A DNA stretch of 64,000 nucleotides, taken from the NCBI GenBank assembly GCA_965215595.1, contig CBDCDW010000005.1, forward strand, positions 235,316-299,315, given 5' to 3'. Positions within the stretch are counted from its first letter, which is position 1. Each line of letters starts with the position of its first letter. Of this stretch, positions 2,765 to 31,108 are shown in pieces. The DNA comes from an uncultured Candidatus Binatia bacterium. Lineage in GTDB: Bacteria > Desulfobacterota > Binatia > UBA9968 > CAXXLF01. The position numbers and the translations under genes are program-made. The notes beneath the pieces were generated by a model. The model made no database searches and was not told the DNA's origin. It was given only the letters and a program-made list of their open reading frames with translations.

Positions 2765-3439
2765 ATGGGCAAAAGAATAACCATCACAGGAAAAGACGGA
2801 TTTCATTTTGGCGCCTTTTTGGACGAACCTGACGGCAAACCAAAGGGCGGAGTAGTTGTCTGCCAGGAAATCTTCGGTGTCAATCAATATTTGGAAAACG
2901 TTTGCGACTTTTACACCAAGGCAGGTTACTTGACCATCGCACCAGCGCTCTTTGACCGAATAGAACGCGATCTGGATATAAAATATTCACCAGAAGGCGT
3001 CCAGCGAGGCATACAGATTTCGTCTAAAGTTGACTGGGACCAAGCGCTGGACGACGTAGAGTCGTCACTGGCCACGGTTCGTACGGCGGGAGCTCAAAAG
3101 TTTGGCGCCATCGGATTTTGTTGGGGTGGTACGCTCGCCTGGCTCCTCGCATGCCGCCGTGAAGTTGACTGTGCAGTGGCCTATTACGGCGCGGAGATAG
3201 AGCAATTTCCCAATGAGCATGCCCGTCATCCCGTGATAATGCACATCGGGGAAGAGGACCCTATCATATCGCCAGAGAAACTTGAGAGTATAAAGAAGGC
3301 CCAGGCCGGCACGCCGATTTTCACTTATCCAAAGGCGTCCCACGGTTTTGACAACGAAGCCCGGCCGAAATACGACTCTGCCACGGTAAAGCTCGCTCGC
3401 GAACGCACCCTCGAATTTCTCGCTAAGCACGTACGGTAG
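2765..3439 (+). CDS. Dienelactone hydrolase family protein (carboxymethylenebutenolidase-like)
   Basis: MGKRITITGKDGFHFGAFLDEPDGKPKGGVVVCQEIFGVNQYLENVCDFYTKAGYLTIAPALFDR..., then a GxxG nucleophile elbow region (GFCWGG) and the C-terminal HGFDNE motif. The ORF track starts at 2696, but the internal Met at 2765 gives the canonical DLH length (~225 aa). Confidence 0.75.
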   Translation: MGKRITITGKDGFHFGAFLDEPDGKPKGGVVVCQEIFGVNQYLENVCDFYTKAGYLTIAPALFDRIERDLDIKYSPEGVQRGIQISSKVDWDQALDDVESSLATVRTAGAQKFGAIGFCWGGTLAWLLACRREVDCAVAYYGAEIEQFPNEHARHPVIMHIGEEDPIISPEKLESIKKAQAGTPIFTYPKASHGFDNEARPKYDSATVKLARERTLEFLAKHVR

Positions 3440-3455
3440 GCAAACAACACTCCTC
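3336..3455. repeat. Direct repeat copy 1 (3' end of the DLH gene plus ~15 bp downstream), ~92% identical to 9188-9300
   Basis: cgtcccacggttttgacaacgaagcccggccgaaatacgactctgccacggtaaagctcgctcgcgaacgcaccctcgaatttctcgctaagcacgta... is repeated at 9188 with a few substitutions. The spurious antisense ORFs at 3065..3430 and 8641..9282 share the N-terminus MLSEKFEGAFASELYRGRVVFRPGFVV for the same reason. Confidence 0.85.
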
Positions 3456-3896
3456 TACTGCGCTATGTTCAGTTCGAGGATTTGTCATCTTGGGATTCAC
3501 AATCGTTCTCAATCTCTTCTCGGTTTACGCTGCGGTTGTTCAATGGTAATGGACACTAGTGGCTAATCACGCGAGTTCGGAATCTGTAGGTTCCGTTTAA
3601 GTATAGATGAAACAGCTTGTTCTGTGAAATTTTAGCTACCTTACTTTTAGTTTGATTGAAATGGGCTAGTACAGGCAAGTTCATTTATAGATAAAAATCT
3701 AACTTTAAATAGCAAGCCAGGCTTGACAAGGTTGGCATTCCTAGAATAAGAGTAAAAGAGTTGAAGATCTCCTGGCGAACCCCGGAGAGATAACTACTTT
3801 GAATCGCAGTTCACAACGTCCAACCGGGTTCTTGCCAGCCCATGTGTTTCTCAATGGTTCCAAGCCGAGATTGAATAGAGGAAGGAGCTTTTCATT

Positions 3897-4475
3897 ATGG
3901 CTTTAGTGAGAATTCCAGAGGGTCTTAATCATGCTCACTTTGATAAAATAAGAGAAATACAGGAAAACATTTTATCGGATATAAAAGGTGCAAGGCGGGT
4001 AGGTATTCGGCTTAATAAAACAGACACAACATATCCATCCCCTGTTTTTGTTGGAATTCTTGAGGATGCTACCATGAGGACCGATAGAGTAAGACGGGGT
4101 GGGGTGGATCCGGGACACGAACGGTTTAGGAATGAGGACTTCTCAGTGATTTACAATCAAACTGTTTCTGACCCTCAAGGCAAATATTGGGAGCGAGATT
4201 GGAATGAAGATAATGATTGTTATGAAAAAACCCTAGGGGGATTAAGGAAGCAAGGCAATAATGATAAGGGAGGCGTAAGATATCAAATCTTCATTGCAAT
4301 TAGAATTGCTGACGGGGCTTGTAAGCGTTCTATAGGGATTTTGGGAATAGGACTTGATGAAAAGCCGCAAGATATGAGGGACGTTGGGGCTGCAATGATA
4401 CGCTGGGCCCAAAGCAACTCTGAGCTCGTTCAACATATCACAAATACATACAAGCTTGGGGGGCCACTGTTTTAA
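3897..4475 (+). CDS. Hypothetical 192-aa cytoplasmic protein, translationally coupled to the downstream histidine kinase
   Basis: A good RBS (ggaaggag) precedes the ATG. The stop (4473-4475) lies 3 bp before the HK start. The region is AT-rich relative to its neighbours, no TM segment is present, and I recognise no motif. Confidence 0.5.
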   Translation: MALVRIPEGLNHAHFDKIREIQENILSDIKGARRVGIRLNKTDTTYPSPVFVGILEDATMRTDRVRRGGVDPGHERFRNEDFSVIYNQTVSDPQGKYWERDWNEDNDCYEKTLGGLRKQGNNDKGGVRYQIFIAIRIADGACKRSIGILGIGLDEKPQDMRDVGAAMIRWAQSNSELVQHITNTYKLGGPLF

Positions 4476-4478
4476 GCT

Positions 4479-6173
4479 ATGCCGCGACCGAAACGCAAAG
4501 CCGCGAACAAAAAAAAGGGCTCCTTGTTAAGAATCTCTCCTACCAACGAAAATTTACTCTCTCGGGCTACGGACCTCTCAGCCCTGCTCACACTGGTAGA
4601 AACGGCGACCCAATCGCTCGATACCGACAAGATCTTGAACGACACGCTGGATAAATCGTTGGAGGTCCTGCGTTTTGATGTGGGCTATATTCGAATTTTG
4701 GACCCGGAAACAAGAACTATGGTGGTCCGCGTGGGCAAAGGCTCAAGATTGCCTGAGATTCAGTACAGCACCGTTCCTATAGATTCGCCTCGTCGTCATT
4801 TAGCAAGCATTATCTTCAAAACTCGCGAGCCCTATATCTGCCTCGATGTTCGGAAAGATAAAAAGTTCAACAACCGAAGCATGGAGCGAGAGGGGGCCAT
4901 TTCAGCAGCTTTTATTCCTATTATGTCTAAGACTCGTATATTAGGAATCATAACGTTAGGAAGTCGCAAGTTTCATAAGTTTACCAAAAGAGAGATTAAT
5001 CTCCTCAAGGCCTTTGGCTCCCAGCTTGGCGCTGCGCTGAAAAATGCTCAACTCTACGACGAGGTGAATAATGGCAAGGCCTATATCGAAAATCTCGTGG
5101 AAAATGCGGGCGACGCTATCATCTCCACGGATCTGGAGGACCAGATCCTCACCTGGAACCGTGGCGCAGAGGTCATATTTGGCTACAGTAAAGAAGAGGT
5201 AGTAAGTAAAAATCTGACTATTCTTCTGCTTCCAAGCGATCATAGGGAACTTGAGGGGATGCGTAACAAAGTCAAGCTGACTGGTGTGATTCGTGACCTT
5301 GAGGTGCGACGAAAGAGAAAGGATGGGCGAATCATTAATGTGACCGTGGCAGTTTCACCCATTAAAGACAATAACGGCAATGTTATCGGGTTTCTCCGGT
5401 TAGCCAAAGACATCACTGAGAAAAAACGTTTTGAGGAAAGGCTCAAAGAACTCGATAGGATGAAATCGGACTTTGTTTCCAACGTCTCCCACGAATTAAG
5501 GACACCGCTTACCTCAATTAAAGGCTCGGTGGACAATATGCTTGACGGTATAACGGGCCCATTGAACGAAAAACAAAACCGCTATCTTACGCGCATCAAG
5601 TCGAATTCGGATCGTCTCTCGCGGCTCATCAATGACATCTTGGACCTCTCAAAATCCGAATCGGGGCGATTCGACCTTACGCCGACGGATCTTCCTCTTG
5701 TCACTCTAACGCAGGAGGTCGCAGAGAGCATTAGGCCAGTGGCAACGGAAAAGCTTATTAGTCTTGAGGTTGCCTCTCCTGATATTAATCTGACTGCTTG
5801 GGCAGATCTAGATAAGGTCACGCAGGTGCTGTTGAACCTCATTGGCAATGCAGTCAAGTTCACTCCGCCCTATGGCAAAGTAGGCGTAGCTATTCAAAGA
5901 AATGGGAATGAGTGGGTGCAGATATCCGTTACAGACACAGGACCAGGTATTCAGACGGACCAGGTAGATAAGATCTTCGATAAGTTTTACCAAGTTGCCC
6001 AAGCAACAAAACAAATAGCCAAAGGCACCGGACTGGGACTCGCTATTTGTAAAGCCATTGTGGAAATGCACGGGGGACGTATCTGGGTAGAAAGTAAATT
6101 AGGCAAAGGAAGCACCTTTTCCTTCACTCTACCTGCGCAGCAGCCGTTTAAGTTTGAACTACCTGCCAGATAG
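4479..6173 (+). CDS. Cytoplasmic sensor histidine kinase (GAF - PAS - HisKA - HATPase_c)
   Basis: A GAF-like N-terminal region is followed by a PAS block (ENLVENAGDAIISTDLEDQILTWNRGAEVIFGY), the H-box SHELRTPLTSIKGS, and N/G boxes (NLIGNAVKFT, DTGPGI, GTGLGLAICKAIVEMHGGRIWVES). No TM helices are present. Confidence 0.85.
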   Translation: MPRPKRKAANKKKGSLLRISPTNENLLSRATDLSALLTLVETATQSLDTDKILNDTLDKSLEVLRFDVGYIRILDPETRTMVVRVGKGSRLPEIQYSTVPIDSPRRHLASIIFKTREPYICLDVRKDKKFNNRSMEREGAISAAFIPIMSKTRILGIITLGSRKFHKFTKREINLLKAFGSQLGAALKNAQLYDEVNNGKAYIENLVENAGDAIISTDLEDQILTWNRGAEVIFGYSKEEVVSKNLTILLLPSDHRELEGMRNKVKLTGVIRDLEVRRKRKDGRIINVTVAVSPIKDNNGNVIGFLRLAKDITEKKRFEERLKELDRMKSDFVSNVSHELRTPLTSIKGSVDNMLDGITGPLNEKQNRYLTRIKSNSDRLSRLINDILDLSKSESGRFDLTPTDLPLVTLTQEVAESIRPVATEKLISLEVASPDINLTAWADLDKVTQVLLNLIGNAVKFTPPYGKVGVAIQRNGNEWVQISVTDTGPGIQTDQVDKIFDKFYQVAQATKQIAKGTGLGLAICKAIVEMHGGRIWVESKLGKGSTFSFTLPAQQPFKFELPAR

Positions 6174-6184
6174 TGAGGTGGGTT

Positions 6185-6553
6185 ATGGGGCTCAAAGTCC
6201 TTGTTGTGGATGATGAGGAAGACATTGTCGAGGTGATCAAGGATCGCCTGGAAGCCTATGGGTTCACGATTTCGACAGCGGGAACCGGTCTGCAGGCTTT
6301 GAAAAAGCTTTCCATGGAAAAATTTGACGGTATTTTCCTGGACATTAAGATGCCAGAGATGGGCGGCATGGAAGCCTTGGAGGAGATCCGCAAGAATGGA
6401 TTGACAATCCCTGTGATTATTCTCACCTCATCTTCCACTAAAGATGTACCCTTGGAGGCTATGGCCAAGGGAGCCGATGATTACCTCCTTAAGCCCTTCG
6501 AGTGGGAAGAGCTGAAGGCCAAAATCGAAAAGGTCTACAACATCTCCCTATAG
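6185..6553 (+). CDS. Single-domain response regulator (CheY-like receiver)
   Basis: KVLVVDDEEDIVEVIKDRLEAYGF...FLDIKMPEMGGMEAL...KPF is a REC domain with no output domain. The start overlaps the HK stop (GTG at 6173 or ATG at 6185). Confidence 0.75.
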   Translation: MGLKVLVVDDEEDIVEVIKDRLEAYGFTISTAGTGLQALKKLSMEKFDGIFLDIKMPEMGGMEALEEIRKNGLTIPVIILTSSSTKDVPLEAMAKGADDYLLKPFEWEELKAKIEKVYNISL

Positions 6554-6589
6554 CGATAGCCATGGAAGGTTTTACCCGGGACCATCCTA

Positions 6590-7915
6590 GTGGTCGATGA
6601 TGACCAGAATATCCAGGAGGTGATCAAAGACCGCCTGGAATCCCTGAATTGCCGGGTATTGCTAGCCTCCAATGGGAAAGAGTGCTTGGAAGTTCTCGAG
6701 CACCAGAGCCCGCAGATGGTCCTTCTTGACATCGAGATGCCCGGTGTCAACGGGCTCGAAGTTCTAAAAGAAATTCGTAAGAGAGAGTACGATGTGAGCG
6801 TGGTAATGATCACAGCTCACGGCACCATTGATCGTGCAGTGCAGGCGATCAAGGGAGGGGCCTATGATTTTATTCAGAAGCCTTTTGAGCCTGACCATAT
6901 TGCCTTAATTGTGGAGCGGACCCTGGAGAGGGAAAGGCTTAAAAGAGACGTAGAGATCTTCTCCGAAGAGATAGGCAAACGTTATAACCTGATTGTGGGT
7001 AAGAGTGCCAAGATGAACCGGGCAGTTGAATTGGCTAAGAAGTCGAGCGCAAGTCGGTCCACTGTGTTGCTTTTAGGAGAAAGTGGAACCGGCAAAGAGA
7101 TATTTGCTCGGGCGATCCACAATTGGAGTGAGCGTTATGGCAAGCCCTTTATTGCCATTAACTGCGTTGGCCTTTCACGGGAACTCTTGGAAAGCGAGCT
7201 TTTCGGCCATGAAAAAGGAGCTTTTACGGGGGCCCATCAGCTTAAAAAAGGCAAGATGGAACTGGCCCATGGTGGGACCATCTTTCTTGATGAAGTTGGC
7301 GATATTTCTCAAGAACTCCAAACCAAACTCCTCAGATTTCTCCAAGAGCGGGAATTTGAGCGGGTCGGAGGGACAAAATCTATCATTGTGGATGTGAGAA
7401 TCATAGCCGCCACGAATCGCGATCTGGATCGGGCGGTCAAAGAAAATAAATTCCGTGAGGATCTCTATTATCGCCTCAACGTCATTCCCATTGTTCTTCC
7501 TCCTTTAAGAGAACGAAGAGAAGACATTCCTACCCTGGCCTACTATTTTTTGCGGCGGTTTTCCTCGGAAACCAAGAAAAGCTTCACCGAGATAACCCTA
7601 GAAGCCTCCGAGAAACTCCAAGCCTATGACTGGCCGGGAAATGTCCGCGAGCTAGGAAATGTCATGGAGCGGGCCGTTGTTTTGGGCCAGGCTCCAAAAG
7701 TTCAACTGGAAGACCTGGCACCCAGTATCGCTTTCTCACAGCCCGTGAACCGCGAAGAAGACTATTCGTATCATGAGGCCACGGATAGCTACAAACGGCA
7801 GCTAATCATTCGGGCCCTAACACAGGCACAGGGAAATCGCGCCGCGGCTGCAAGGGCCCTCGGTCTTCAGCGGACCTATCTTTCCCGATTGATAAAAACT
7901 CTTCGTATTGGCTGA
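6590..7915 (+). CDS. Sigma-54-dependent response regulator (NtrC family: REC - AAA+ - Fis-type HTH)
   Basis: REC (VVDDDQNIQEVIKDRLE...LLDIEMP), Walker A GESGTGKE, a canonical GAFTGA (ESELFGHEKGAFTGA), an R-finger region, and a C-terminal HTH (NRAAAARALGLQRTYLSRLIK). The start is GTG. The REC domain is paralogous to that of the preceding CheY-like gene. Confidence 0.85.
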   Translation: MVDDDQNIQEVIKDRLESLNCRVLLASNGKECLEVLEHQSPQMVLLDIEMPGVNGLEVLKEIRKREYDVSVVMITAHGTIDRAVQAIKGGAYDFIQKPFEPDHIALIVERTLERERLKRDVEIFSEEIGKRYNLIVGKSAKMNRAVELAKKSSASRSTVLLLGESGTGKEIFARAIHNWSERYGKPFIAINCVGLSRELLESELFGHEKGAFTGAHQLKKGKMELAHGGTIFLDEVGDISQELQTKLLRFLQEREFERVGGTKSIIVDVRIIAATNRDLDRAVKENKFREDLYYRLNVIPIVLPPLRERREDIPTLAYYFLRRFSSETKKSFTEITLEASEKLQAYDWPGNVRELGNVMERAVVLGQAPKVQLEDLAPSIAFSQPVNREEDYSYHEATDSYKRQLIIRALTQAQGNRAAAARALGLQRTYLSRLIKTLRIG

Positions 7916-8014
7916 GTCATTTTGGATCGCTGACTCCGCTAAGACTTTCCATATCGCCGTCGAATCTCTCACCAAAGAGACTTTCCCTATGGGCTGAATC
8001 CTTTTCTTCACATG

Positions 8015-8034
8015 CCGTATCCACAAGGATACGG
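8015..8034 (+). promoter_or_regulatory. Perfect 8-4-8 palindrome ccgtatcc-acaa-ggatacgg, ~100 bp upstream of the sigma-54 promoter; candidate enhancer (UAS) for the adjacent NtrC-type activator
   Basis: Dyad symmetry is visible directly. The distance to the -24/-12 element is typical for bEBP enhancers. Confidence 0.35.
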
Positions 8035-8118
8035 GTCTCTCTATCGCTCCATCAGATGACTCAACCGATTTCCCTTTGATTCAGTAGCTTATCCAATTTT
8101 GTCGCTACTGCCGCTGAT

Positions 8119-8133
8119 TGGCACAGCCTTTGC
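8119..8133 (+). promoter_or_regulatory. Sigma-54 (RpoN) -24/-12 promoter TGGCAC-N5-TTGC, ~36 bp upstream of the cyclase start
   Basis: ttGGcacagcctttGCg matches the consensus YTGGCACG-N4-TTGCW, with the GG and GC doublets correctly spaced. It sits immediately downstream of a sigma-54 activator gene. Confidence 0.6.
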
Positions 8134-8169
8134 GCTACTGTTTAAACGTACCTTGAAGAAGAATATCAA

Positions 8170-9186
8170 ATGGGGGAAATGATGGCTGAAGAGATTCTGG
8201 TCCCAACCAAAGGTCTAAATGGCATTGAGGAAATCATCCCTCACCTCGAGCATATTGCCAATCCAGCAATGAGCGTCATTTTGCTGGTTCCCTACCGAAC
8301 GGAGCTTCTCCGCAGCCTTTTGCATCAGTGGATTCCAGCAGAGTCGAGGGAGGAAGATTTACCACAGGGTATAGAGACCACGGAAGGGCTCTCACTGGAG
8401 CCACAAAACAGGTTGGCTGATCAGAATAGCGCTCCCGCTCGTGAGAGTTTAATGAAATTTGACCCCCGTAACGTAAGCCTTTACTATCTTGGCTCCAATG
8501 GAGTAGAGCACGACGTTCCTAAAGGAAAGATGGCCATGGAGCTCATAGGACTCGAACGTAAGCTCACCGCCATCCTTAGCGCCGATGTGGTTGGCTATAG
8601 CCGCCTGATGGGCGAGGATGAAGCGGGCACAATCCATACCTTAACGGCCTACCGCGAAGTGATGACCACCCTTATCCAGCAACACCGTGGCAGAGTCGTG
8701 GACGCACCGGGTGACAATCTCTTGGCGGAGTTTGCCAGCGCAGTGGGCGCGGTGGAGAGCGCGCTCGCTATTCAGCAAGAGTTGAAGACGAGGAACGCCG
8801 AACTGCCTGCTGACCGCCAGATGGTCTATCGTATCGGAATTAACGTTGGCGAGGTCGTGGTCGAGGGCGAGCGGATTTATGGTGACGGTGTCAATATTGC
8901 CTCCCGTTTGGAGAGCTTGGCCGAGAGCGGAGGCATCTGCCTCTCGGGGAATGCTTTTGAACTGGTTCGTGATAAGCTGGCGGTCGGCTTTAAAAACCTC
9001 GGTGATCGAAGGGTCAAGAATATCAACAGACCGATTTCTGCCTATAGCGTGCTCACCGATCCTGACTTCGTTGGAAAGGTGAAAAACGCGCCCGCGAAGG
9101 GGTTTGCTCGTTGGAAATGGCCAGCCGTCACCACCACCGTCATGTTCATTCTTATCGCAGCAAGCATTGGAGTGTGGTGGCCCTAA
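8170..9186 (+). CDS. Class III adenylate/guanylate cyclase with an unknown ~120-aa N-terminal region and a C-terminal single TM anchor
   Basis: Cyclase homology domain: LERKLTAILSADVVGYSRLMGEDEAGTI...VDAPGDNLLAEF...YRIGINVGEVVVEGERIYGDGVNIASRL. A C-terminal hydrophobic helix (WPAVTTTVMFILIAASIGVWWP) closes the protein. The N-terminal 120 aa have no recognisable motif. Confidence 0.8.
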   Translation: MGEMMAEEILVPTKGLNGIEEIIPHLEHIANPAMSVILLVPYRTELLRSLLHQWIPAESREEDLPQGIETTEGLSLEPQNRLADQNSAPARESLMKFDPRNVSLYYLGSNGVEHDVPKGKMAMELIGLERKLTAILSADVVGYSRLMGEDEAGTIHTLTAYREVMTTLIQQHRGRVVDAPGDNLLAEFASAVGAVESALAIQQELKTRNAELPADRQMVYRIGINVGEVVVEGERIYGDGVNIASRLESLAESGGICLSGNAFELVRDKLAVGFKNLGDRRVKNINRPISAYSVLTDPDFVGKVKNAPAKGFARWKWPAVTTTVMFILIAASIGVWWP

Positions 9187-9187
9187 A

Positions 9188-9300
9188 CGTCCCATGGCAT
9201 TGACAACGAAGCCCGGCCGAAATACGACTCTGCCACGGTAAAGCTCGCTCGCGAACGCACCCTCGAATTTCTCGCTAAGCACGTAGGATAATCAAACAAG
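9188..9300. repeat. Direct repeat copy 2, starting 2 bp after the cyclase stop codon
   Basis: See copy 1. It encodes a gene-less ...HGIDNEARPKYDSATVKLARERTLEFLAKHVG* tail. Confidence 0.85.
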
Positions 9301-9430: not shown

Positions 9431-11446
9431 CTAGTGCGTCCGCTCCCCGACGAAGTCCGCCAACTCACGGAGTACGTGCGCATCGTTACCGAAGGCGATG
9501 ATCGCCTCTTTCGCCTCGTGGATGAGCTGCTTGGTTCGCTCGCGGGAGTTTTCAACGCCGAGGACCGAAGCGAATGTCGCTTTGCGGTGGCGCGCGTCGC
9601 TGCCTTGCGGCTTACCGAGCTGCTCGGTGGAGGAGGTGACGTCGAGGATGTCATCGACGATCTGAAACGCGAGGCCGACACGCTCACCGTAAATCGCTAG
9701 CTGCTCGATCTGCTCGTCCGTTGCACCGCCCGCAATACCACCCGCCACAATAGACGTGCGCAGGAGCGCTGCCGTCTTCATTCGGTGCAAGCGTATGAGG
9801 GCGTCGGTGTCGAGCTGTTGTCCGTCGGAGAGAATGTCGATGACCTGCCCACCTACCATTCCGTGGGCTCCAACGGCAGACGAAATCTCATGAACGAGAC
9901 GAATGGCGCGAGAGGCTCCGATACGCTCTGTGAGCGTCGGATCTGCCAGTAACTCAAAGGCGCGGGTCAGCAACGCATCCCCAACCAAAATCGCCATCGC
10001 TTCGCCATAGACCTTGTGTGTCGTGGGCTTGCCCCGGCGCAAATCGTCGTTGTCCAAGGCCGGCAGGTCGTCGTGCACCAGCGAGTAGGTGTGGATGAGC
10101 TCGACTGCTAGCGCTGGCATTATCGCGTCGCTCGCCGCGGCTCCCACCGACTCCGCAGCCGCCAGTGCCAGGATCGGGCGAAGTCGCTTTCCCCCTGCGA
10201 ACACCGGGTAGCGGACCGCGTCCGCAAGTTGGTCGGGTGTCGACCCATTCGGGAGCGATCCGTCTAGAGCAATTTCAACAAGCTCCCGCCTGGAAGCCAT
10301 ATAGCCGCTCAAAACATCGGCCGACGTCCCAGCCACTAGCGTGCTCCGGGGTTGCGGCGAGATGGTCACGGGTCCTAGGCTCAGGCGGCAGAAACTGGTG
10401 CGCAGTGCTTCGTCGTCCTCCACATGCTCGACGCAATCCTGGATCAGCTTTTCGACCTCTCCATGGGAGATCTTCACCGGCTCGCCGGGGATGAGCTGGG
10501 CGTCGTTTCTCCGGGCATAGGCAAGGGTGCGCACCGCCATCCACAACGGTAAGAGACAGAAAAGGCGTATGTCTCGTTCGTTCGGCGGGATCGCCAAGCA
10601 ATAGGTGAATGCATGCTCGAACCCGCGCTGAGCACGCTTGAATAGCGGCGCCAGCGCCGTGTGAGCGCGCTCTCGCGCCTCGGGTTGCAACAGCTCGGCT
10701 ACCTCCAGGCCAGCATCCTGGCAGACCGTGCGCGGGACATAGCAAACGCCGCGCTCCCAGTCGTTAGTGATATCCTTGAGGATGTTGGTCATCTGCAGGC
10801 CGACGCCAAACTCCTCCGCGTTGGTGCGCAGGGCATGAGTGCGCGGGGCATCGAGATCGCAGGTATCCGTGAATAGGTCGGTGAGCATGTGCGCGACCGT
10901 CCCTGCGACGAAGTAGCAGTACCGTTCGAGATCCGCAAGTGTTGTCAACGCCACGATGCCATCCTCGCCAGTTGGGCGCCGACTGTATATGGCCATCCCG
11001 CGCGCCATCTCGCATACACCCCGTCGTATCGCTCGCTGCGAGGAGTCGTTGAGCTCCGCGAAGACGCCGAGAACGCGCGGCAGGTTTTTCACTAGCCGAC
11101 GCTCCGCGCTCGCCGGTCTTTCACCGTTGTCAGGGAACCGGCTCGCGAAGTCCGAAGCCGAAGCATCCTGCTCCAAACATTCGAGGAAAGATAAATAGAG
11201 GCCGTCCCGCTCTGCCAGTGTGAGGTTTGACTCATCCTCGATCGTATCGGCAATCCGGCATAGCAAGTAGCCGCAGGTGACCGCACGCTCCAGCGGATCG
11301 CGCAACATCGCGATTGGCAAACTGAAGGTCCGCGAGACCTCCTTCAGCGACTGCTGACAGAAACGCCAATCGCTGGAATTCATAGCGCCATCGGTTAGCA
11401 TAACTTTGTCACAGAATGTAACCCGTTTATTCGGTTTGGAAACCAC
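9431..11446 (-). CDS. Bifunctional fusion: squalene/phytoene synthase-like domain (N) + trans-polyprenyl diphosphate synthase (FPP/GGPP synthase) domain (C)
   Basis: N-terminal half: RIADTIEDE and LQMTNILKDITNDWERGVCYVP, the two Asp-rich SQS/PSY motifs, plus YCYFVAGTVAHM. C-terminal half: GKRLRP, the first DDxxD-type motif LVHDDLPALDNDDLRRGKPTTH and the second FQIVDDILD. The gene is high-GC. Confidence 0.75.
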   Translation of the reverse strand: MVSKPNKRVTFCDKVMLTDGAMNSSDWRFCQQSLKEVSRTFSLPIAMLRDPLERAVTCGYLLCRIADTIEDESNLTLAERDGLYLSFLECLEQDASASDFASRFPDNGERPASAERRLVKNLPRVLGVFAELNDSSQRAIRRGVCEMARGMAIYSRRPTGEDGIVALTTLADLERYCYFVAGTVAHMLTDLFTDTCDLDAPRTHALRTNAEEFGVGLQMTNILKDITNDWERGVCYVPRTVCQDAGLEVAELLQPEARERAHTALAPLFKRAQRGFEHAFTYCLAIPPNERDIRLFCLLPLWMAVRTLAYARRNDAQLIPGEPVKISHGEVEKLIQDCVEHVEDDEALRTSFCRLSLGPVTISPQPRSTLVAGTSADVLSGYMASRRELVEIALDGSLPNGSTPDQLADAVRYPVFAGGKRLRPILALAAAESVGAAASDAIMPALAVELIHTYSLVHDDLPALDNDDLRRGKPTTHKVYGEAMAILVGDALLTRAFELLADPTLTERIGASRAIRLVHEISSAVGAHGMVGGQVIDILSDGQQLDTDALIRLHRMKTAALLRTSIVAGGIAGGATDEQIEQLAIYGERVGLAFQIVDDILDVTSSTEQLGKPQGSDARHRKATFASVLGVENSRERTKQLIHEAKEAIIAFGNDAHVLRELADFVGERTH

Positions 11447-13696: not shown

Positions 13697-13735
13697 GTAA
13701 CTAAGAATGGCATTGAGTTTGCGTTCCATATTTTG
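13697..13735 (-). other. Orphan 5' fragment (promoter/5'UTR + first ~10 codons, MERKLNAILS...) homologous to the start of the 1139-aa cyclase-STAND gene
   Basis: The complement reads atggaacgcaaactcaatgccattcttagt (MERKLNAILS), versus atggaacgcaaactcactgccattcttagt at 19249. About 55 bp of upstream sequence are also alignable (catattt-g...tgaaacttaga...). The frame then diverges. Confidence 0.45.
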
Positions 13736-13764
13736 TAATCAATGGGCTTGAAACTTAGAGACCA

Positions 13765-13830
13765 ATATCACAGGGGAAAAGTCTGTCAAGGAGACCAAGA
13801 TGTAATTAAACGACGCTTTAATTGAGCGTT
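13765..13830. repeat. Short dispersed repeat, copy B
   Basis: atatcacaggggaaaagtctgtcaaggagaccaagatgtaattaaacgacgctttaattgagcg versus copy A atcacagagaagacaggtgtcaaggagatcc...aagatgtggttcaatgacgctttagtcg. Confidence 0.5.
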
Positions 13831-18800: not shown

Positions 18801-19249
18801 AGGTCCTCAAAGTTAACAGATACCTTTCCCTTGATATGCTCAAATACCGTCCCCGATATGCATATGCCACCAGGTTCCGCTAATCCCTCCATCCGTGCTG
18901 CGATGTTCACCCCATCACCGTAAATCCGCTCCCCTTCCACGATCACATCACCAAGGTTAATCCCTATACGAAACTCCATGCTGCGGTTCTCTGGCAAATT
19001 GGCGTTCTCTGCCCTGAGCGTAGATTGGACTACGGCGGCACATTTCACCGCATCTACCACGCTGCCAAACTCCGCCAACAGGTTATCTCCAGGGGAGTCC
19101 ACTACTCTGCCCCGATTGCGCGGGATGAGAAACGTCATCACTTGTCGGTGAGAGGTCAATGTGCGAATGGTCGCCTCCTCATCCTCCCCCATTAGTCGAC
19201 TGTAACCTTCGACATCCGCACTAAGAATGGCAGTGAGTTTGCGTTCCAT
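15830..19249 (-). CDS. Large tripartite signalling protein: N-terminal class III nucleotidyl cyclase domain - central P-loop NTPase (AAA/NB-ARC-like, GEPGIGKTSL) - C-terminal TPR-like helical repeats; no HTH
   Basis: N-terminus MERKLTAILSADVEGYSRLMGEDEEATI...SPGDNLLAEF...FRIGINLGDVIVEGERIYGDGVNIAARM is paralogous to the cyclase at 8170. Walker A VGEPGIGKTSLCEQL and a Walker B-like LLVVLEDLHDAD follow. About 600 aa of Ala/Leu-rich repeats make up the C-terminal half. The gene is high-GC. Confidence 0.8.
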   Translation of the reverse strand: MERKLTAILSADVEGYSRLMGEDEEATIRTLTSHRQVMTFLIPRNRGRVVDSPGDNLLAEFGSVVDAVKCAAVVQSTLRAENANLPENRSMEFRIGINLGDVIVEGERIYGDGVNIAARMEGLAEPGGICISGTVFEHIKGKVSVNFEDLGPQQVKNIAEPIRAYRAVLDQGTALAKPQKKVEVPRRQPPTVELPEKVTLPEEKLNAGTVEPTPLSVAGKETARLGVNDSLYGRTFVGRERELRQLQGAFDATLSYQGSLAMVVGEPGIGKTSLCEQLVTYVTQRGGMALVGHCYEEGSLSLPYLPFVEAMRSYVLTQESDDLRRDLGSGAADVARLVSEIQDRLRVEVRPPGDPEDDRWRLLQAVSEFLRNASMVQPLLVVLEDLHDADRGTLDLLLHISHNLQGTHLLIVGTYRDVEVDRAHPLSSALAELRRAGSFLRVSPRGLTVEEVQRMMSIVRGQDVPWSGAEAIHRQTEGNPLFVHEVLRYLVEEGIVVRESGRYLLADSEAGIPEGLRDVVGKRLSRLTEKANQILSVAAVIGREFRLDVLEQVAGLPEEELYGALEEATGRAVIEQRQAVGTVGFRFTHAFFRQTLYEEIFVPRRIRLHQQVGKTLEEVYSQRLDEHAAELTEHFIQSTERGDLEKALSYSEMAAKQAMQVFAYGEAARRLEQALRTQEVLDPDNKAKRCDLLLALGEAIGPAGEPQRAAEQVATEALRLAEFLGDDIRASRACELAVDALHRHGGPYMVLTDIYLNWAESLDRYAAPNSRSRVYADCILASVRRPRGKHGVANALVLRALELARRLDDPEVLFRAAASMMFMGWPPQYQQEQRHMAYEITDRPRHRVRTTTLALVLQRAQTLFLAAGDRARTEQVWRELSELANHTRDVVALLWPLQLEAVRATLSGELESSVEVAARLKSQAIELGIPRAGELSAEWLSFQPLLYLGHEDASPIRERVLAARGAFAVVQILKDAHQGRSAEALMGAQRSLANLRPQAAAGEAGTFHLATLLEVAVVVGDRETATFAREQLQGLVAIGLHDLVVFNVARQLGGAAALLGDREDAQAEYERALAWATSIQYRPEIALTRLQLAELLLQGTSEEKAQAREHLDFAISEFREMKMKPALERALRHKNVLSA

Positions 19250-19555
19250 ATTTGGGACTCAATCGGACTGAAACTAAGAAAACAAAATTACGGAGAAACA
19301 GGATTTCTCAACGCAAAAAGTAAGTCAGTTTTTCCGTTAAGTAGAAATGATGATATGATTTGTCTTTTCAGCATAGCTTTATCCTCCTCTATATTTGTTG
19401 ATCAGCGGAGATCTAAACGCTAGTTATTTATCCTTTGCCCGCTCTCCCAAAGCGTCGTTGATCACTCAAACGTATGGCTTAAGCTCCCTGCCATCCGGGT
19501 CAAATTTTTAAGCTGGCTATTCTGCAACCGATATCCAGCACTTGTCAAGGTTCGG

Positions 19556-19810
19556 ATGGAGCCGCCGCTGCTTGCGCGCACAGTAGCCTGCTACTTTTGG
19601 TCCAGAGACTATCGGTGTACCTTGGCGGGAGATCCTATTCCACCTTAAGATACAATTCAACGCCGCTTTAATTGAGTCTTACGGCCGTTGGAAAAGAAAA
19701 GGCGGCCCGATATGGACCGCCTTTTCTTTAGGGAGTAAGGATTGTGTCTGGATGGCTTTAGCTTACAAGATTACTGATGTTCTTTTGTTCGGCAACAACT
19801 CCAATGCCCG
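19556..19810. repeat. Tandem duplication, first copy of the ~250-bp overlap (unit length 947 bp; second partial unit at 20503-20750)
   Basis: ggagccgccgctgcttgcgcgcaca...ggcggcccgatatggaccgccttttcttta...atggctttagcttacaagattactgatgt is repeated 947 bp downstream with ~95% identity. It includes the start of the transposase ORF. Confidence 0.85.
19625..19690. repeat. Short dispersed repeat, copy C (again at 20572-20637 inside the tandem duplication)
   Basis: gggagatcctattccaccttaagatacaattcaacgccgctttaattgagtcttac shares the aagat...ttNaacgNcgctttaattgag core. Confidence 0.45.
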
Positions 19811-20507
19811 GGATCTGGATAAAGAGGTTAAGTTTTACCATAGACGTCCCCTGCAGTACCGCTATCAGTTCTTTGATGGGGTGGTGTTAAAGAGCAAGGG
19901 GGTTACAGAAAAAGATATTACTTTGTGCCTTCGGGATCCTGATGGGAAGGGGATCGATTTCTATGCGGCCCCAACTGAATCTGAAGCCTGCTCGTTGTTA
20001 AGGGACCTGTATCTAGAGGGGGGGTGTTGTGAGCTGATTGTGACCGATGGGGGAACGGGGCTGCATGGAGCCTTACAGATTGTCTATCCTAAGATCCTCG
20101 CCCAACGCTGCTGGGCCCATAAGACAAGAAACGTGTTGGACAAGGTAAAAAGGGCCGATCAACCAGCGGTCAAAAAAGCTCTAAATCGTATCAGTCATGC
20201 CCCTAATTATAGAAAAGCTACGGAAGCTTACTGGCGGTTTGGTTCACGCTGGAGGAAGGCTTATCCAAGGGCTGTGGCCTGTTTGGAAAAGGATCTCGAT
20301 CAAACTTCTTTCAGATCAAGCGGCCTGAAGCCGCTTGGAACCACCAACCTCATAGAAAGATCGTTCCGGGAAGTCAGGCGCAGGACTCGCCCTATGGGGG
20401 TGATGGCAAATACCCAAAGCATACAAAGAATCGTTTTTTCTGTCTTTCATCACTTGAACCAAAATTGGAGTGAGAATGCCCCTAAGAAATTTACACACAA
20501 GTCTTGA
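19752..20507 (+). CDS. IS256 (Mutator)-family transposase, C-terminal ~250 aa only (N-terminal ~120-150 aa missing)
   Basis: QRCWAHKTRNVLDKVKRADQPAVKKAL is the IS256-family C-terminal signature. FFDGVVLKSKG and LIVTDGGTGL match the DDE-region blocks of IS256 transposases. The ORF is too short for an intact enzyme. Confidence 0.6.
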   Translation: MALAYKITDVLLFGNNSNARDLDKEVKFYHRRPLQYRYQFFDGVVLKSKGVTEKDITLCLRDPDGKGIDFYAAPTESEACSLLRDLYLEGGCCELIVTDGGTGLHGALQIVYPKILAQRCWAHKTRNVLDKVKRADQPAVKKALNRISHAPNYRKATEAYWRFGSRWRKAYPRAVACLEKDLDQTSFRSSGLKPLGTTNLIERSFREVRRRTRPMGVMANTQSIQRIVFSVFHHLNQNWSENAPKKFTHKS

Positions 20508-20750
20508 CGATGGAGCCGCCGCTGCTTGCGCGCACATAGCCTGCTACTTTTGGTCCAGAGACTATCGGGTACCTTGGCGGGAGATCCTATTCCACCTTAA
20601 GATACAATTCAACGCCGCTTTAATTGAGTCTTACGGCCGTTGGAAAAGAAAAGGCGGCCCGATATGGACCGCCTTTTCTTTAAGTAAGGATTGTGTCTAT
20701 GGCTTTAGCTTACAAGATTACTGATGTCTTTTGTTGCAACAACTAATCCG
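20503..20750. repeat. Tandem duplication, second (partial) unit; truncated where the IS3 element begins
   Basis: See 19556-19810. Confidence 0.85.
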
Positions 20751-26349: not shown

Positions 26350-27145
26350 GGGTAGAGTAGAGGACAGGCTTAGCTTGCTTTAGGCCGCACCTTGGCTGTA
26401 TCCGCCGTTTCCAGCTTCGTGCCCGTTTAGGCACTTCCGTAACAAGCGTTCCTGTCCCCCCTCATCAAACCGTACTTGCAGTTTTCCCGCATACGGCTTT
26501 CCGATCATCTTCATCTCAAGGCATGCGAGGCCGCCTATTGAGCTCCCTCTTGGCCTTGAGATACAGTCTCCGCTAGAGGTCTCGAATCTTGTTAGGTGTT
26601 TGTAGCCTCACGGCAATCACCTCTCCTTCCCTCTTTAAGAGACACAATGAAAGTAGGGCGCCTTCCCTCAGCCGGCATTACCCAGCCTCCTCGGTAATAC
26701 TCGCCCCTCCGACTTCTCGCCCGCCTGACCCTGACTTCGGTTTCCCTTATACCGAGCCATTGCGGCTATCACCCGCGACAAACGAGATCTCCCGCGTTAC
26801 CCATCACAACTTCCCCCACATGCCGTCCCGACGACCCCGGAGAGCCCATCTGCTTCTGTCTCGGTTATTTCCACAGATGGCACCGGCCTTCCCCATCTGA
26901 CCACAGGGTCGGCACTCTCAATCAGCAAGTTACGAGGCTCTATGGGTTCCCTAGTAGTACGGCCTGCGAGTTTGCGATCCTCTCCTTTTGGAAAGTTTTC
27001 TCGATCCACTTAGCCCTGAGAGTCACCCCTCAAAACCGGATCTTCGCTAGCGGGGTGAACCGTTAATTCCCCGCACCGGACTTTAACCGGCAAGTTGCAC
27101 TGCTTCCGCGGCATACGGTCAGGTCTTGACGGGCTGTTGCCCAAA
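26350..27145. repeat. ~796-bp repeat, copy 1 (>99% identical to 28697-29492)
   Basis: Direct comparison shows only two mismatches, both near the right end. The identical spurious ORFs 26589..26900 and 28936..29247 in the track reflect this. Confidence 0.9.
26439..27076 (-). ncRNA. Putative ORF-less group II intron (ribozyme only), copy 1
   Basis: On the minus strand the element starts GTGCG (complement of 27072-27076) and contains a textbook domain V near its 3' end: aAGCcgtatgcggGAAAActgcAAgtacggttt. That is a 9-bp lower stem beginning with the AGC triad, an AA bulge, a 4-bp upper stem and a GNRA-like loop (complement of 26467-26499). A hairpin region follows and ends ...gttac. There is no room for an intron-encoded protein. 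Confidence 0.55.
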
Positions 27146-28075: not shown

Positions 28076-28621
28076 ATGACACGCATTAGCATTCTGACGC
28101 CCGACGAGATGAACGATGAACAGCGCGCAGTGATCGACGCGTCCAAGGCCAACGGCAAGCCGCATGGCGGGCCATTCTGGGCCTATATCCGCAATCCCAA
28201 ACTAATGCAGAACGTCCAGGACACAGGAGCCTGTATCGCCGACAGCACCCTGTCCGCCCGCGAATCACAGATCGCCATCTTGACCGTGGCGCGGTTCTGG
28301 GGCGCCAAATACCCGTGGGCGGTTCAATGCCGCAACGCTCTTAAAGTTGGACTCACGCAGGAAGAGATCGACGCCATCAACGCCCGCGGCGCGCCGCCAA
28401 CCGATGACAAGCGTGAATTGCTCGCGCATCAGGTCGCCAATGAACTGCTCGCCGACAAGGGTTTAAGCGATGCCACCTACGCATCCGCCGAATCATCCTT
28501 TAGCACCGAAGAGCTGGTGGCTCTAGTTGCCCGCGTCGGCTCGTTCTCGATGACGTGTTGCACCGCCAACGCATTTGATATCACGCCGCCCGATGAGGTA
28601 CCTGCGCGCCTTAAGGCATAG
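28076..28621 (+). CDS. Carboxymuconolactone decarboxylase (AhpD-like) family protein
   Basis: 181 aa; ...ESQIAILTVARFWGAKYPWAVQCRNALKVGLTQEEID... is typical of the CMD/AhpD helical fold. A conserved Cys is present (not a CxxC pair). The gene is high-GC and lies between the two intron-like repeat copies. Confidence 0.65.
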   Translation: MTRISILTPDEMNDEQRAVIDASKANGKPHGGPFWAYIRNPKLMQNVQDTGACIADSTLSARESQIAILTVARFWGAKYPWAVQCRNALKVGLTQEEIDAINARGAPPTDDKRELLAHQVANELLADKGLSDATYASAESSFSTEELVALVARVGSFSMTCCTANAFDITPPDEVPARLKA

Positions 28622-28696: not shown

Positions 28697-29492
28697 GGGT
28701 AGAGTAGAGGACAGGCTTAGCTTGCTTTAGGCCGCACCTTGGCTGTATCCGCCGTTTCCAGCTTCGTGCCCGTTTAGGCACTTCCGTAACAAGCGTTCCT
28801 GTCCCCCCTCATCAAACCGTACTTGCAGTTTTCCCGCATACGGCTTTCCGATCATCTTCATCTCAAGGCATGCGAGGCCGCCTATTGAGCTCCCTCTTGG
28901 CCTTGAGATACAGTCTCCGCTAGAGGTCTCGAATCTTGTTAGGTGTTTGTAGCCTCACGGCAATCACCTCTCCTTCCCTCTTTAAGAGACACAATGAAAG
29001 TAGGGCGCCTTCCCTCAGCCGGCATTACCCAGCCTCCTCGGTAATACTCGCCCCTCCGACTTCTCGCCCGCCTGACCCTGACTTCGGTTTCCCTTATACC
29101 GAGCCATTGCGGCTATCACCCGCGACAAACGAGATCTCCCGCGTTACCCATCACAACTTCCCCCACATGCCGTCCCGACGACCCCGGAGAGCCCATCTGC
29201 TTCTGTCTCGGTTATTTCCACAGATGGCACCGGCCTTCCCCATCTGACCACAGGGTCGGCACTCTCAATCAGCAAGTTACGAGGCTCTATGGGTTCCCTA
29301 GTAGTACGGCCTGCGAGTTTGCGATCCTCTCCTTTTGGAAAGTTTTCTCGATCCACTTAGCCCTGAGAGTCACCCCTCAAAACCGGATCTTCGCTAGCGG
29401 GGTGAACCGTTAATTCCCCGCACCGGACTTTAACCGGCAAGTTGCACTGCTTCCGCGGCATACGTTCAGGTCTTGTCGGGCTGTTGCCCAAA
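28697..29492. repeat. ~796-bp repeat, copy 2; ends in the left inverted repeat of the IS1182-family element
   Basis: See copy 1. The offset is 2347 bp. Confidence 0.9.
28786..29423 (-). ncRNA. Putative ORF-less group II intron, copy 2
   Basis: Identical to copy 1 (offset 2347 bp). Confidence 0.55.
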
Positions 29493-31108
29493 TCAATAAT
29501 TTCAGTGCGTTAACAGAACTCTCTGGTTATAATGCTCTCAGTTATTCTCAATTATTATAGGGAGCAAAGCCATGATGGGTCATCAGCCACCCTCTCAGCC
29601 TGCACTATTCTACACAGGATTTAATTTGGAAAAACGGATTCGTGCGGACCACATGTTGCGCAAAGTAGCACGGATGGTGGATTTTGATTTTGTGTACCAA
29701 GAAGTCAAGGATCGATATGGATACAACGGCAACGTATCGGTTGCACCGCCAATGATAATAAAGCTGATGATGCTTTTGGTGCTCTACAACGTTCGTAGCG
29801 AGCGAGAGTTGATGGCAACGTTGCCGGAGCGGCTAGACTGGTTGTGGTTTTTGGGATTGGAGTTGGATTCGGAGATACCGCACCATAGCGTGCTGAGCAA
29901 GGCGAGGAGGCGTTGGGGTGTAGAGTTGTTTCGATCCTTTTTCGAGCGAGTCGTGTGGCAGTGTGTGGAGAGCGGGTTAGTGGACGGGAGTAAGCTTTTT
30001 TGCGACTCCAGTTTGATTGAAGCGGATGCTTCACGCAACTCGGTTATAGACACCCAGGGGCTTAGACGTTACCTGAGCCCAGCATACAAGGAGTTGGAGG
30101 CACGATTAGAGGAGCGGGAAGAGGCAAGAGAGGACAACCATGAGGATCCACCCGAGAACCCTCCCCGGCGTAACGTTGTCAACCAGCGCTACGTGTCGGC
30201 AACCGATCCAGATGCCTCGGTGGTACGCAAGGGAAAGAAGGGGGACTCTAAGCTGCGTTATCAGACCCACCGTGGGATCGACGGGGCGTATGGGGTAATT
30301 ACCGCGACGGTGGTTGGCCCTGGGGACGAGAACGAAGCACATCGCATGACAGAGCTTCTCCAGGATCATCAGGCCCATACCCAACGAAGTGCCCAGGTGG
30401 TGGTAGCCGATAGCAAGTACGGGACAACAGCTAATTTCTTAGATTGCTACGACCGTGGGATATTGGCACACATTCCGGTGTTGAAACAGACCCAGGATAA
30501 GCAGGAGCGTCGGAGCAAGATATTTCCTGAAAGTATGTTTGTTTATGACCCAGAAACCGACACTTATACATGTCCTGCCGGGCAACCGCTTAGGCGGCGT
30601 AAGCACTGGGTGGAGCGCAAGGCGTTTGAGTACGTGACGAGCCGCGGGGTGTGCCAGCAGTGTACCTTGCGGCTTCAATGCACTCGTTCTCAAAGTGCGG
30701 GGCGAACCATCAAACGCCATGAGCGCCAGGAGATATTGGATAGCGTGCGTATGCGAGCACAGAGCCCATGGGCAAGAAGAGATATCAAGGTCCGTCAGCA
30801 TTTCATGGAACGATCGTTTGCTCAAGGGAGACGATATGGACTGAAACGAGCGCGGTGGCGTGGTCGTTGGCGGGTGCAGATTCAAGATTACTTGATAGCG
30901 ATTGTGCAGAACATCGAGCTATTGATTAATCATGCACGGCCAAAACCAAGAGCGGTTTTGGCTGCAGCAACGAAGGTGGCCATTCGCTTTGCGACCCACC
31001 ATCCCACGGCCTTGCAGCAAGCCGTGGTGGTTTGAGCAAACAAACACCGCACGTTATAGCTCGGTTGGATCTATTGCGCTATTTAACCGAGGTTTGGGCA
31101 ACAGCCCG
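29477..31108 (+). mobile_element. IS1182/IS5-family insertion sequence, copy 1 (1632 bp; 16-bp terminal IRs cgggctgttgcccaaa / tttgggcaacagcccg)
   Basis: Perfect terminal inverted repeats. It carries a single transposase ORF at 29572..31035 and is identical in length and nearly identical in sequence to the inverted copy at 33289-34920. Confidence 0.8.
29572..31035 (+). CDS. IS1182/IS5-family DDE transposase (DUF772 N-terminal domain + DDE_Tnp_1)
   Basis: PALFYTGFNLEKRIRADHMLRKVARMVDFDFVYQEV...YGYNGNVSVAPPMIIKLMMLLVLYNVRSEREL is the characteristic IS5-group N-terminus. A C-terminal Cys-rich region follows (CPAGQPL...CQQCTLRLQC). Confidence 0.8.
   Translation: MMGHQPPSQPALFYTGFNLEKRIRADHMLRKVARMVDFDFVYQEVKDRYGYNGNVSVAPPMIIKLMMLLVLYNVRSERELMATLPERLDWLWFLGLELDSEIPHHSVLSKARRRWGVELFRSFFERVVWQCVESGLVDGSKLFCDSSLIEADASRNSVIDTQGLRRYLSPAYKELEARLEEREEAREDNHEDPPENPPRRNVVNQRYVSATDPDASVVRKGKKGDSKLRYQTHRGIDGAYGVITATVVGPGDENEAHRMTELLQDHQAHTQRSAQVVVADSKYGTTANFLDCYDRGILAHIPVLKQTQDKQERRSKIFPESMFVYDPETDTYTCPAGQPLRRRKHWVERKAFEYVTSRGVCQQCTLRLQCTRSQSAGRTIKRHERQEILDSVRMRAQSPWARRDIKVRQHFMERSFAQGRRYGLKRARWRGRWRVQIQDYLIAIVQNIELLINHARPKPRAVLAAATKVAIRFATHHPTALQQAVVV

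Follow-up and report, generated by a model that had tools for sequence, protein, structure and literature searches.

We analyzed a 64,000-nt stretch of DNA (hereafter, the window) from an uncultured Candidatus Binatia bacterium, taken from a long-read metagenome assembly (GCA_965215595.1, contig CBDCDW010000005.1, positions 235,316-299,315 of the forward strand), and focused on a cassette of five co-oriented genes located just downstream of a dienelactone hydrolase (DLH) gene. These genes encode a stand-alone GAF-fold protein, a GAF-PAS histidine kinase, a single-domain receiver, an NtrC-type sigma-54 activator and a class III nucleotide cyclase. The block is bracketed by a direct repeat of the DLH 3' end and is precisely absent from the closest relative, and the cyclase gene is preceded by a sigma-54-type promoter that is conserved in five lineages. 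The best explanation for the structure and the function taken together, which we consider probable, is that the cassette would be one content of a variable slot, left there by an old recombination event, and that its kinase and activator would control the transcription of a cyclase without a periplasmic sensor. The contigs compared carry labels such as L017, and all features of the cassette lie on the forward (+) strand of the window.

A direct repeat of the DLH 3' end brackets the cassette

The DLH gene (2765-3439; Pfam PF01738, E = 3e-40) has its called start at ATG 2765 in an open reading frame (ORF) open from GTG 2696, and its 224-aa product is recorded on seven contigs, the longest of 6.17 Mb. 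The final 34 codons of this gene and the following 8 nt form repeat copy A (3336-3447), whereas copy B (9188-9299) is a displaced DLH tail encoding ...AKHVG*, which begins 2 nt past the cyclase stop codon (9184-9186). The first-pass annotation, made from the sequence alone, had described this repeat as ~92% identical; the aligned copies agree at 105 of 112 positions (94%) and have an exact core of 86 bp (3348-3433 = 9200-9285). The seven mismatches are confined to the outer 26 positions and spare the core (Fisher p = 1.8e-5). The core was found only twice in the window and had no match in shuffled sequence. A common intergenic element was rejected at the scale of the window, where only these two copies occur and the other repeats are unrelated in sequence, and blastn-short detected no third, degraded copy, either around 37 kb or in the rest of the window.

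An assembly artefact or a chance similarity might be suspected from the long-read metagenome source and from the other perfect repeats in the window, but chance would have to account for an 86-bp exact match that shuffled sequence does not produce. Moreover, because both copies are present in four independent assemblies, L002 and L004 among them, and the separate short-read contigs L014 and L016 cross the DLH-cassette junction and the cyclase-fragment junction, respectively, an assembly artefact is excluded; we give such readings practically no credence.

The two copies differ in their affinities. At the sites distinguishing A from B, the closest relative (L017) agrees with A at 5/5 positions of the left edge and with B at 11/12 positions of the right edge. 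The right flank of copy A (TAG gCAAACAACACtCC) agrees with the cassette-bearing L014, and the right edge of copy B and everything beyond it agree with L017. Judged by these sites, copy A is a backbone left side joined to a cassette-type right side, and copy B is a foreign or decayed left edge joined to a backbone right side. The window DLH is the only orthologue ending in ...HVR* (TAG, in copy A), all others ending in ...HVG*, as does copy B (TAA). In addition, the cores of A and B have three common derived substitutions that are absent from L017 and from the outgroups.

The tail in copy B continues the reading frame of the cyclase beyond the stop codon in both the window (9184-9291) and L016 (1275-1382). 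In both cases, read-through of the TAA stop codon would append a 34-residue DLH tail to the cyclase.

The DLH gene borders a variable slot

The DLH of L017 is 94% identical to that of the window at the amino acid level, and its flanks have diverged from the window to a similar extent, with 93.1% and 91.5% nucleotide identity. This contig has the order HpaB - short LysR - DLH, followed directly by the sequence that follows copy B, and contains a single DLH tail. It is the kind of uninterrupted DLH 3' flank in a related genome that the first-pass annotation had suggested looking for, colinear with the window up to 3447 and again from 9300 onward. With DLH joined straight to the sequence beyond copy B in L017, the 5,852-bp block is thus present or absent as a precise unit. 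The earlier view of the block as a unit is upheld by this absence. The repeat does not mark a recent acquisition, the joint being old and common to L016 (see below).

Other relatives have different contents at this position. In L006 (85% nucleotide identity), synteny breaks at window position 3445 and RidA, bactofilins, Mrr, MmeI and IS110 are found instead. In L018-L021 (75-80%), DLH is followed by a fatty-acid desaturase gene, which in the window is located at 39 kb. The short-read contig L014 (82.5%) opens with the last 18 nt of DLH and runs on into the cassette, and in L016 (79%), also a short-read contig, the cyclase stop is followed by a DLH fragment at the same joint and then by unrelated genes. 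L015, L103 and L104 (80-84%) have the same promoter and cyclase without the DLH fragment. In these three contigs, the cyclase stop is followed by an in-frame relic of a longer cyclase (PQFEPEWVEKMALPF; VEKMGLPLPDK), a position at which full-length cyclase relatives carry RPQFEPASVEIMAFPLPDKPS. In L015 and L103, the relic is followed by a gene for a GAF-type sigma-54 activator, and the same gene is located at 37.4 kb in the window. Because relatives hold such different contents after DLH, comparison of these contigs indicates that the DLH gene is the edge of a highly variable slot and that the cassette is one of several alternative contents. The repeat had initially been taken as the boundary of the cassette itself, which does not agree with L015, L103 and L104, where promoter and cyclase are present without it. 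A conserved five-gene neighbourhood was not recovered elsewhere; only the two ends of the cassette were found outside this species. A scan of Joint Genome Institute (JGI) metagenomes with the cyclase was dominated by paralogues and gave no new cassette copies.

In L015 (1445-2483) and L106 (84-1273), the GAF-activator gene lies in inverted pieces beside the cyclase, reflecting either a real inversion or chimeric short-read contigs. L106, in which the activator 3' end abuts the cyclase start without a sigma-54 promoter and the cyclase C-terminus is paralogous, is probably chimeric or rearranged and was not used as evidence. A tRNA-like sequence noticed by eye beside the cyclase in L104 was also rejected, as no tRNA was detected there by ARAGORN.

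Origin of the joint and upkeep of the repeat

The left boundary of copy B coincides with a microhomology between TAGGGGCCCCAG, the ancestral sequence after the stop in L015 and L104, and AAGGCGTCCCAC in DLH. In a tree of the whole cyclase gene, the window groups with L015, and L016 groups with L104, as if the cyclase/DLH joint had arisen twice. Two independent origins were rejected, since the 3' end of the gene groups the window with L016: 22 of the 24 alignment sites uniting the window with L015 lie in columns 140-576, while 7 of the 12 sites uniting it with L016 lie in the last 60 columns (p = 4.5e-7). The clustering of the latter at the cyclase 3' end therefore argues for a single origin of the joint. 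The distribution points to a mosaic cyclase gene, in which the joint and the adjacent gene end would be of one origin and recombination would have occurred upstream. In L015, L103 and L104, the relic comes after the cyclase stop, which shows that the stop is older than the joint. Truncation of the cyclase by the repeat was also considered and rejected, as the same end point is found in seven homologues of 332-340 aa.

Near the joint, the window and L016 have diverged by ~13-18%, while the core of A and B is perfect. Between copy B and the L016 fragment there are 19 nucleotide differences, of which 14 fall at third codon positions (p = 4e-4), and the reading frame of the DLH tail is intact in both. 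Such a third-position bias with an intact frame is the pattern expected if the fragments were converted from a functional gene. Most likely, the core of B is held identical to the live DLH by gene conversion, and the edges beyond its reach decay. On this evidence, the repeat is the scar of an old recombination event, homogenised afterwards, and neither a fresh acquisition scar nor an attachment (att) site.

The following course of events would account for these observations. In Candidatus Binatia, a variable slot immediately after DLH would be the site of the cassette. An illegitimate joint would have formed once, at a patch of microhomology, between the end of an already truncated cyclase gene and approximately codon 190 of DLH, and would have left the cassette between the live DLH tail (A) and the displaced tail (B). 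The topology would be that of a single-crossover (Campbell-type) insertion of a circle with a DLH tail; the same topology would follow from unequal crossing-over of two alternative slot versions, and neither route would require a dedicated recombinase. Gene conversion would then have maintained the identity of the 86-bp core of B with the live gene, while the edges of B decayed. The repeats would permit precise loss of the block, or its transfer among relatives by homologous recombination, and L017 would represent a cassette-free allele. We infer the order of these evolutionary events and the conversion mechanism, as well as the action of the kinase and activator at the cyclase promoter that is considered below.

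Gene content of the cassette

Copy A is followed by a variable spacer (3448-3545), which could not be aligned with the ~340 nt found in L014, and then by the conserved upstream/leader region of the sensor operon (3546-3896); from 3546 on, identity to L014 is 82.5%. A conserved TTGACA (3723-3728) in this region suggests a putative housekeeping-type promoter. A sigma-54 motif was searched for in 3546-3896 and was absent, and comparison of the leader regions with Rfam gave no credible or significant match, hence no known RNA or riboswitch.

The five co-oriented genes were described correctly at the outset, and Pfam agrees with the domains assigned to the kinase, receiver, activator and cyclase. 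The first four genes are spaced 0-36 nt apart and are separated from the cyclase by a 255-nt gap. The gene of the 192-aa GAF-fold protein (3897-4475) is followed, 3 nt after its stop, by that of the histidine kinase (4479-6173), which has GAF_2, PAS, HisKA (1.8e-23) and HATPase_c (9e-34) domains and the H-box SHELRTPL in its translation, as in two-component histidine kinases; its N-terminus has no hydrophobic stretch, in line with a cytoplasmic protein. The receiver (6173-6553; Response_reg, E = 6e-31) is annotated as a 122-aa product in other assemblies. The enhancer-binding response regulator (6590-7915; Response_reg, Sigma54_activat with E = 8e-72, AAA_lid_14 and HTH_8) has the features of the NtrC class, namely a receiver, GESGTGK at residue 163, GAFTGA at residue 210 and a Fis-type helix-turn-helix (HTH; HTH_8). 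In other assemblies it is annotated as a 450-aa form starting from about 6562. NCBIfam places it near AtoC/NtrC, with scores under every equivalog cut-off.

The 192-aa protein had been listed as unknown, and it indeed has no Pfam match: none of the 62 family members matched any Pfam profile at E <= 0.1, the GAF profiles PF01590, PF13185 and PF13492 included. A GAF fold could nevertheless be recognised, so that the description as unknown holds for Pfam and not for the fold. Its top Foldseek match, free methionine sulfoxide reductase, was rejected as a function because the cysteines are not conserved in the family. A small, unannotated family of proteins with a stand-alone GAF fold is defined by this protein. 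Six of the 62 members (including P0250 and P0258) carry a twin-arginine export signal and are probably periplasmic; the window copy is without it.

A conserved sigma-54 promoter precedes the cyclase gene

A sigma-54-type promoter, as the first-pass annotation had proposed, precedes the cyclase gene: TGGCACagcctTTGCg (8119-8134; TGGCAC-N5-TTGC) is located 36 nt before the cyclase ORF and has the GG and GC elements with the exact spacing and orientation of such promoters. The motif is kept in five lineages (the window, L015, L016, L103 and L104); L015 and L104 have the 8119-8134 sequence unchanged, and L016 and L103 each deviate from it by one nucleotide. A 17-nt block, ATTGGCACAGCCTTTGC, is identical in the window, L015, L016 and L104 and differs by one nucleotide in L103, while overall identity of the surrounding intergenic region is no more than 79-84%. 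A perfect 18-bp palindrome (CGTATCC-ACAA-GGATACG, 8016-8033), located 86 nt upstream of the -24 element, is present in all five lineages and occurs once in the window; it is a candidate enhancer to which the activator may bind. As a control, 77 paralogous cyclase genes obtained as a by-product of the JGI metagenome scan were examined, and none has the motif within 400 nt upstream (0.6 expected by chance); the sigma-54 wiring is therefore clade-specific. The motif of the cyclase is also the only one within the block. A dependence of the cyclase on sigma-54 is very probable.

A truncated cyclase of the receptor type

The cyclase ORF (8170-9186) likely starts at ATG 8179/8182, since homologues begin with MMAEE/MAEE. 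The protein has a class III fold, with a PF00211 (Guanylate_cyc) score of 40.1 bits (cut-off, 21.9) and a match to PDB 3mr7 (E = 1.6e-38). D139, D182, N242 and R246 are invariant or nearly so across 55 homologues, and the metal-binding Asp residues (SADV, PGDN) and the transition-state Asn/Arg of GVNIASRLE are retained. Catalytic activity is predicted from the sequence. The canonical specificity residue before the GD motif, Lys for ATP or Glu for GTP, was not found, and the whole subfamily has Asp or Asn at the substrate-defining position.

In a structure model, the catalytic domain (residues 128-300) is confident and a terminal helix is predicted at residues 316-336, in agreement with the C-terminal membrane anchor claimed initially. 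The N-terminal extension is poorly predicted, with a beta-alpha-beta-alpha unit at 6-53 and disorder at 54-125. This extension of ~125 aa is clade-specific, and the ancestral start Met persists at residues 121/123. Full-length homologues have 332-340 aa and this clade ends in ...GVWWP*, whereas the wider family continues into TolB-like/TPR periplasmic domains. By this comparison, the cyclase is a remodelled, truncated receptor-type enzyme without the periplasmic sensor.

Regulatory model and alternative explanations

In the regulatory part of the favoured explanation, the housekeeping-type promoter would drive an operon of the GAF-fold protein, the GAF-PAS kinase, the single receiver and the NtrC-type activator. 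The GAF-fold protein and the kinase would sense a cytoplasmic ligand; the activator would be phosphorylated by the kinase, the single receiver would serve as a sink or connector, and the activator would bind the conserved palindrome and open the sigma-54 promoter. The sensor-less, membrane-tethered cyclase would then be made. Through loss of the periplasmic sensor, cyclic-nucleotide control would have moved from the enzyme to its transcription. The cassette had also been called self-contained, which is unproven, as the ancestral right-hand neighbour of the cyclase is the GAF-type sigma-54 activator. It is conceivable, though we regard it as an unlikely minority view, that the cyclase promoter is served by another activator, such as the GAF-type one, and that the kinase-activator operon controls other genes. 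Further strong sigma-54 motifs in the window, at 13708 (+) and 40456-40471 (-), would be compatible with this arrangement. However, 255 nt separate the end of the NtrC-type activator gene from the cyclase, which has the same orientation, the sole sigma-54 motif of the block is that of the cyclase, and the GAF-type activator adjoins a candidate target of its own, the promoter at 40456-40471.

As regards the mobility of the block, no recombinase gene was found within it or within ~10 kb on either side in a survey of genes and Pfam domains, and the nearest mobile-element genes are insertion sequence (IS) transposases, from 19.7 kb in the window onward. The repeat is not a transposon target-site duplication, which would be short (2-15 bp), being 112 bp long, with no inverted terminal repeats or transposase in 3448-9187. 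A site-specific integrative islet that is cis-mobilisable, with the DLH tail as its attachment site and the integrase encoded elsewhere, could be envisaged, because the direct repeats span exactly the DLH 3' end and restore the gene with an altered last codon (HVR* vs HVG*), an empty site exists in L017, and the right sides of A (cassette-type) and B (host-type) resemble attL and attR. At least five right-hand contexts, moreover, join DLH within ~10 nt of the stop. A cognate tyrosine or serine recombinase is nevertheless absent from the block and its ~10-kb flanks, and the only mobile-element genes, IS transposases, are more than 10 kb away. In L015, L103 and L104 the cassette has no right-hand repeat, the left boundary of copy B coincides with a microhomology to ancestral post-stop sequence, and the repeat has degenerate edges; conservation of the DLH tail does not exceed that of the rest of the gene. 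We consider this islet decidedly unlikely.

A recent import of the cassette from a relative, together with its own ~120-bp DLH "homology handle" and through one homologous crossover, is also unlikely, although it would explain several features. L017 would then truly preserve the ancestral empty site, and recency, not gene conversion, would explain why the cores are identical. The derived substitutions common to A and B and absent from L017 would be expected, as would a left edge of copy B that is like neither A nor L017. The joint is common to the non-sister lineage L016, and the cassette is absent from close relatives of both bearing backbones (L017 on one side, and L018/L019 relative to L014 on the other). 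Recent import leaves unexplained, however, why seven differences are packed into 26 edge positions beside a perfect core, and the cassette identity between the window and L014 (82.5%) is close to that of the backbone (78-80%), which fits long co-residence. A more far-reaching proposal is that of a recombinase-free, "homology-addressed" plug-in, which would travel between Binatia with the DLH tail as its handle and enter or leave by homologous recombination, bringing with it a closed second-messenger switch in which the GAF-fold protein and GAF-PAS kinase would sense the cyclase's own cyclic nucleotide as feedback; we regard this combination as quite improbable.

Several observations weigh against the explanation that we favour, that of an old scar and a cyclase controlled by its neighbouring kinase and activator. 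The sequence of L017 is predicted alike by an ancestral empty site and by repeat-mediated deletion. The left edge of copy B differs from both A and L017 at 5/14 positions, which is above the expectation for a simple duplication, and different blocks abut DLH ~10 nt past its stop in various genomes, as a site-specific process would also produce. The five-gene order is complete in one species only, its two ends being found elsewhere on short contigs. With regard to function, the GAF-type activator (37381-38937), the ancestral neighbour of the cyclase, could be its true regulator, as its gene comes directly after the cyclase in L015 and L103, compared with a distance of 28 kb in the window. In addition, the substrate-defining Lys of the cyclase is replaced by Asp (VVDAPGD), while 3mr7 and Ma1120 have Lys (vKttGD and vKsqGD), which weakens the prediction of a product and even of catalytic activity.

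Other features of the window

Upstream of DLH, a LysR-type ORF (2350-2640) encodes 92-96 aa with the HTH domain only. It is kept at the same position and length in L006, L020 and L105 and is thus no recently formed pseudogene. Beyond copy B, the first gene is a fused squalene/phytoene synthase - polyprenyl synthetase gene (9431-11446, -), with ~62% G+C compared with 45-50% in its neighbours. About 3 kb beyond this gene, strains of the same species differ by an IS, an rve_3 element in L001 (18242-19068) and a Mutator-family element in L003 (18092-18922). Because these same-species strains differ in their insertions, IS activity near the squalene-synthase gene is recent.

Additional sigma-54-like motifs were detected in the window. 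The exact motif TGGCACagcggTTGCa (40456-40471, -) is located upstream of a small signal-peptide ORF and the fatty-acid desaturase gene (39046-39822, -), and the GAF-type sigma-54 activator gene (37381-38937, +) beside this motif and the desaturase suggests a second sigma-54 module. An 82-bp repeat with 80% identity (13700-13781 / 19220-19301) also carries a sigma-54-like motif. One copy, with TGGCATtgagtTTGCg (13708), is upstream of an amidohydrolase gene, and the other, with TGGCAGtgagtTTGCg (19228), is beside the start of a gene for a 1,139-aa cyclase-AAA_16 protein.

Three further repeats were found. A perfect 114-bp direct repeat (19617-19730 / 20569-20682) brackets a truncated Mutator/IS256-family transposase ORF (19752-20507); it is near the DLH repeat in length and unrelated to it in sequence. 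A perfect direct repeat of at least 300 bp (26350-26649 / 28697-28996), with its copies 2,347 bp apart, surrounds a gene of the carboxymuconolactone-decarboxylase family (28076-28621). The third, a perfect 1,653-bp inverted repeat (29466-31118 / 33279-34931), carries a 487-aa IS5/IS1182-type transposase gene in each arm and encloses two IS200-like Y1 transposase ORFs and a RidA-family gene (31412-31798), an arrangement like that of a composite transposon. The RidA segment has 87.5% identity to the sequence that comes right after DLH in L006.

Comparison with known systems and implications

The cassette consists of ordinary parts, with a regulatory logic of the NtrBC type and an unusual class of target gene. 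Like NtrB/NtrC-type systems (AtoSC, ZraSR and GlrKR), it combines a kinase with a receiver-AAA+-HTH activator containing GAFTGA, and it has a target promoter with -24 GG and -12 GC elements and a palindromic site ~90-110 nt upstream. In contrast to these systems, the target is a class III cyclase instead of a metabolic, envelope or flagellar gene, the operon adds a stand-alone GAF-fold protein and an extra single receiver, and the activator falls below the NCBIfam equivalog cut-offs. The cyclase resembles receptor-type class III cyclases in its catalytic domain (55-72% identical) and in the position of its membrane helix. It differs from them in having lost the periplasmic part by an in-frame stop, the relic of which is seen in L015 and L103, and in having gained the ~125-aa N-terminal extension and a sigma-54 promoter, which the 77 paralogues do not have.

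In Neisseria, minimal mobile elements (hot spots) are cassettes located between conserved flanking genes and devoid of mobility genes. The present locus is similar in that varied cassettes occupy one slot beside a conserved gene and would be exchanged via recombination in the flanks; here, by contrast, the tail of one flank is duplicated, so that a direct repeat permits precise loss. The ICESt1-related elements of Streptococcus thermophilus are cis-mobilisable, with att repeats at the 3' end of a gene. The cassette has in common with them the 3'-end repeats, a restored gene, the absence of an internal integrase and tandem stacking of blocks, but it differs in having no evident cognate integrase, degenerate edges, a microhomology joint and copies without the repeat.

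With respect to regulation, the one precedent found in the literature searched is FleQ, which acts on the cyaA promoter in Pseudomonas putida, where RpoN binding and ATPase activity are not needed (PMC8125075). That case is similar to the cassette in that an enhancer-binding protein acts at the promoter of an adenylate cyclase gene (PMC8125075), whereas the cassette cyclase has a canonical sigma-54 promoter. Cyclases are not listed in a 2025 survey of sigma-54 regulons (PMC12316311), and no report of a sigma-54-dependent class III cyclase gene was found in the literature searched, which is weak negative evidence. The suggestion that this regulatory unit has not been described is compatible with this search for a sigma-54-dependent class III cyclase and must be qualified by the RpoN-independent precedent of FleQ and cyaA.

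The gene described here may be the first example of a class III cyclase gene that depends on sigma-54. The locus illustrates that, in an uncultured phylum, a block of accessory genes can be stacked, retained, shuffled and lost with precision in the absence of a mobility gene, and that a displaced gene fragment can stay in step with its parent gene. These results do not overturn current understanding and provide testable hypotheses for signalling in Binatia. If the proposed wiring is true, a sensor-less receptor cyclase under sigma-54 control would mean that the cyclic-nucleotide decision has moved from the enzyme to transcription.

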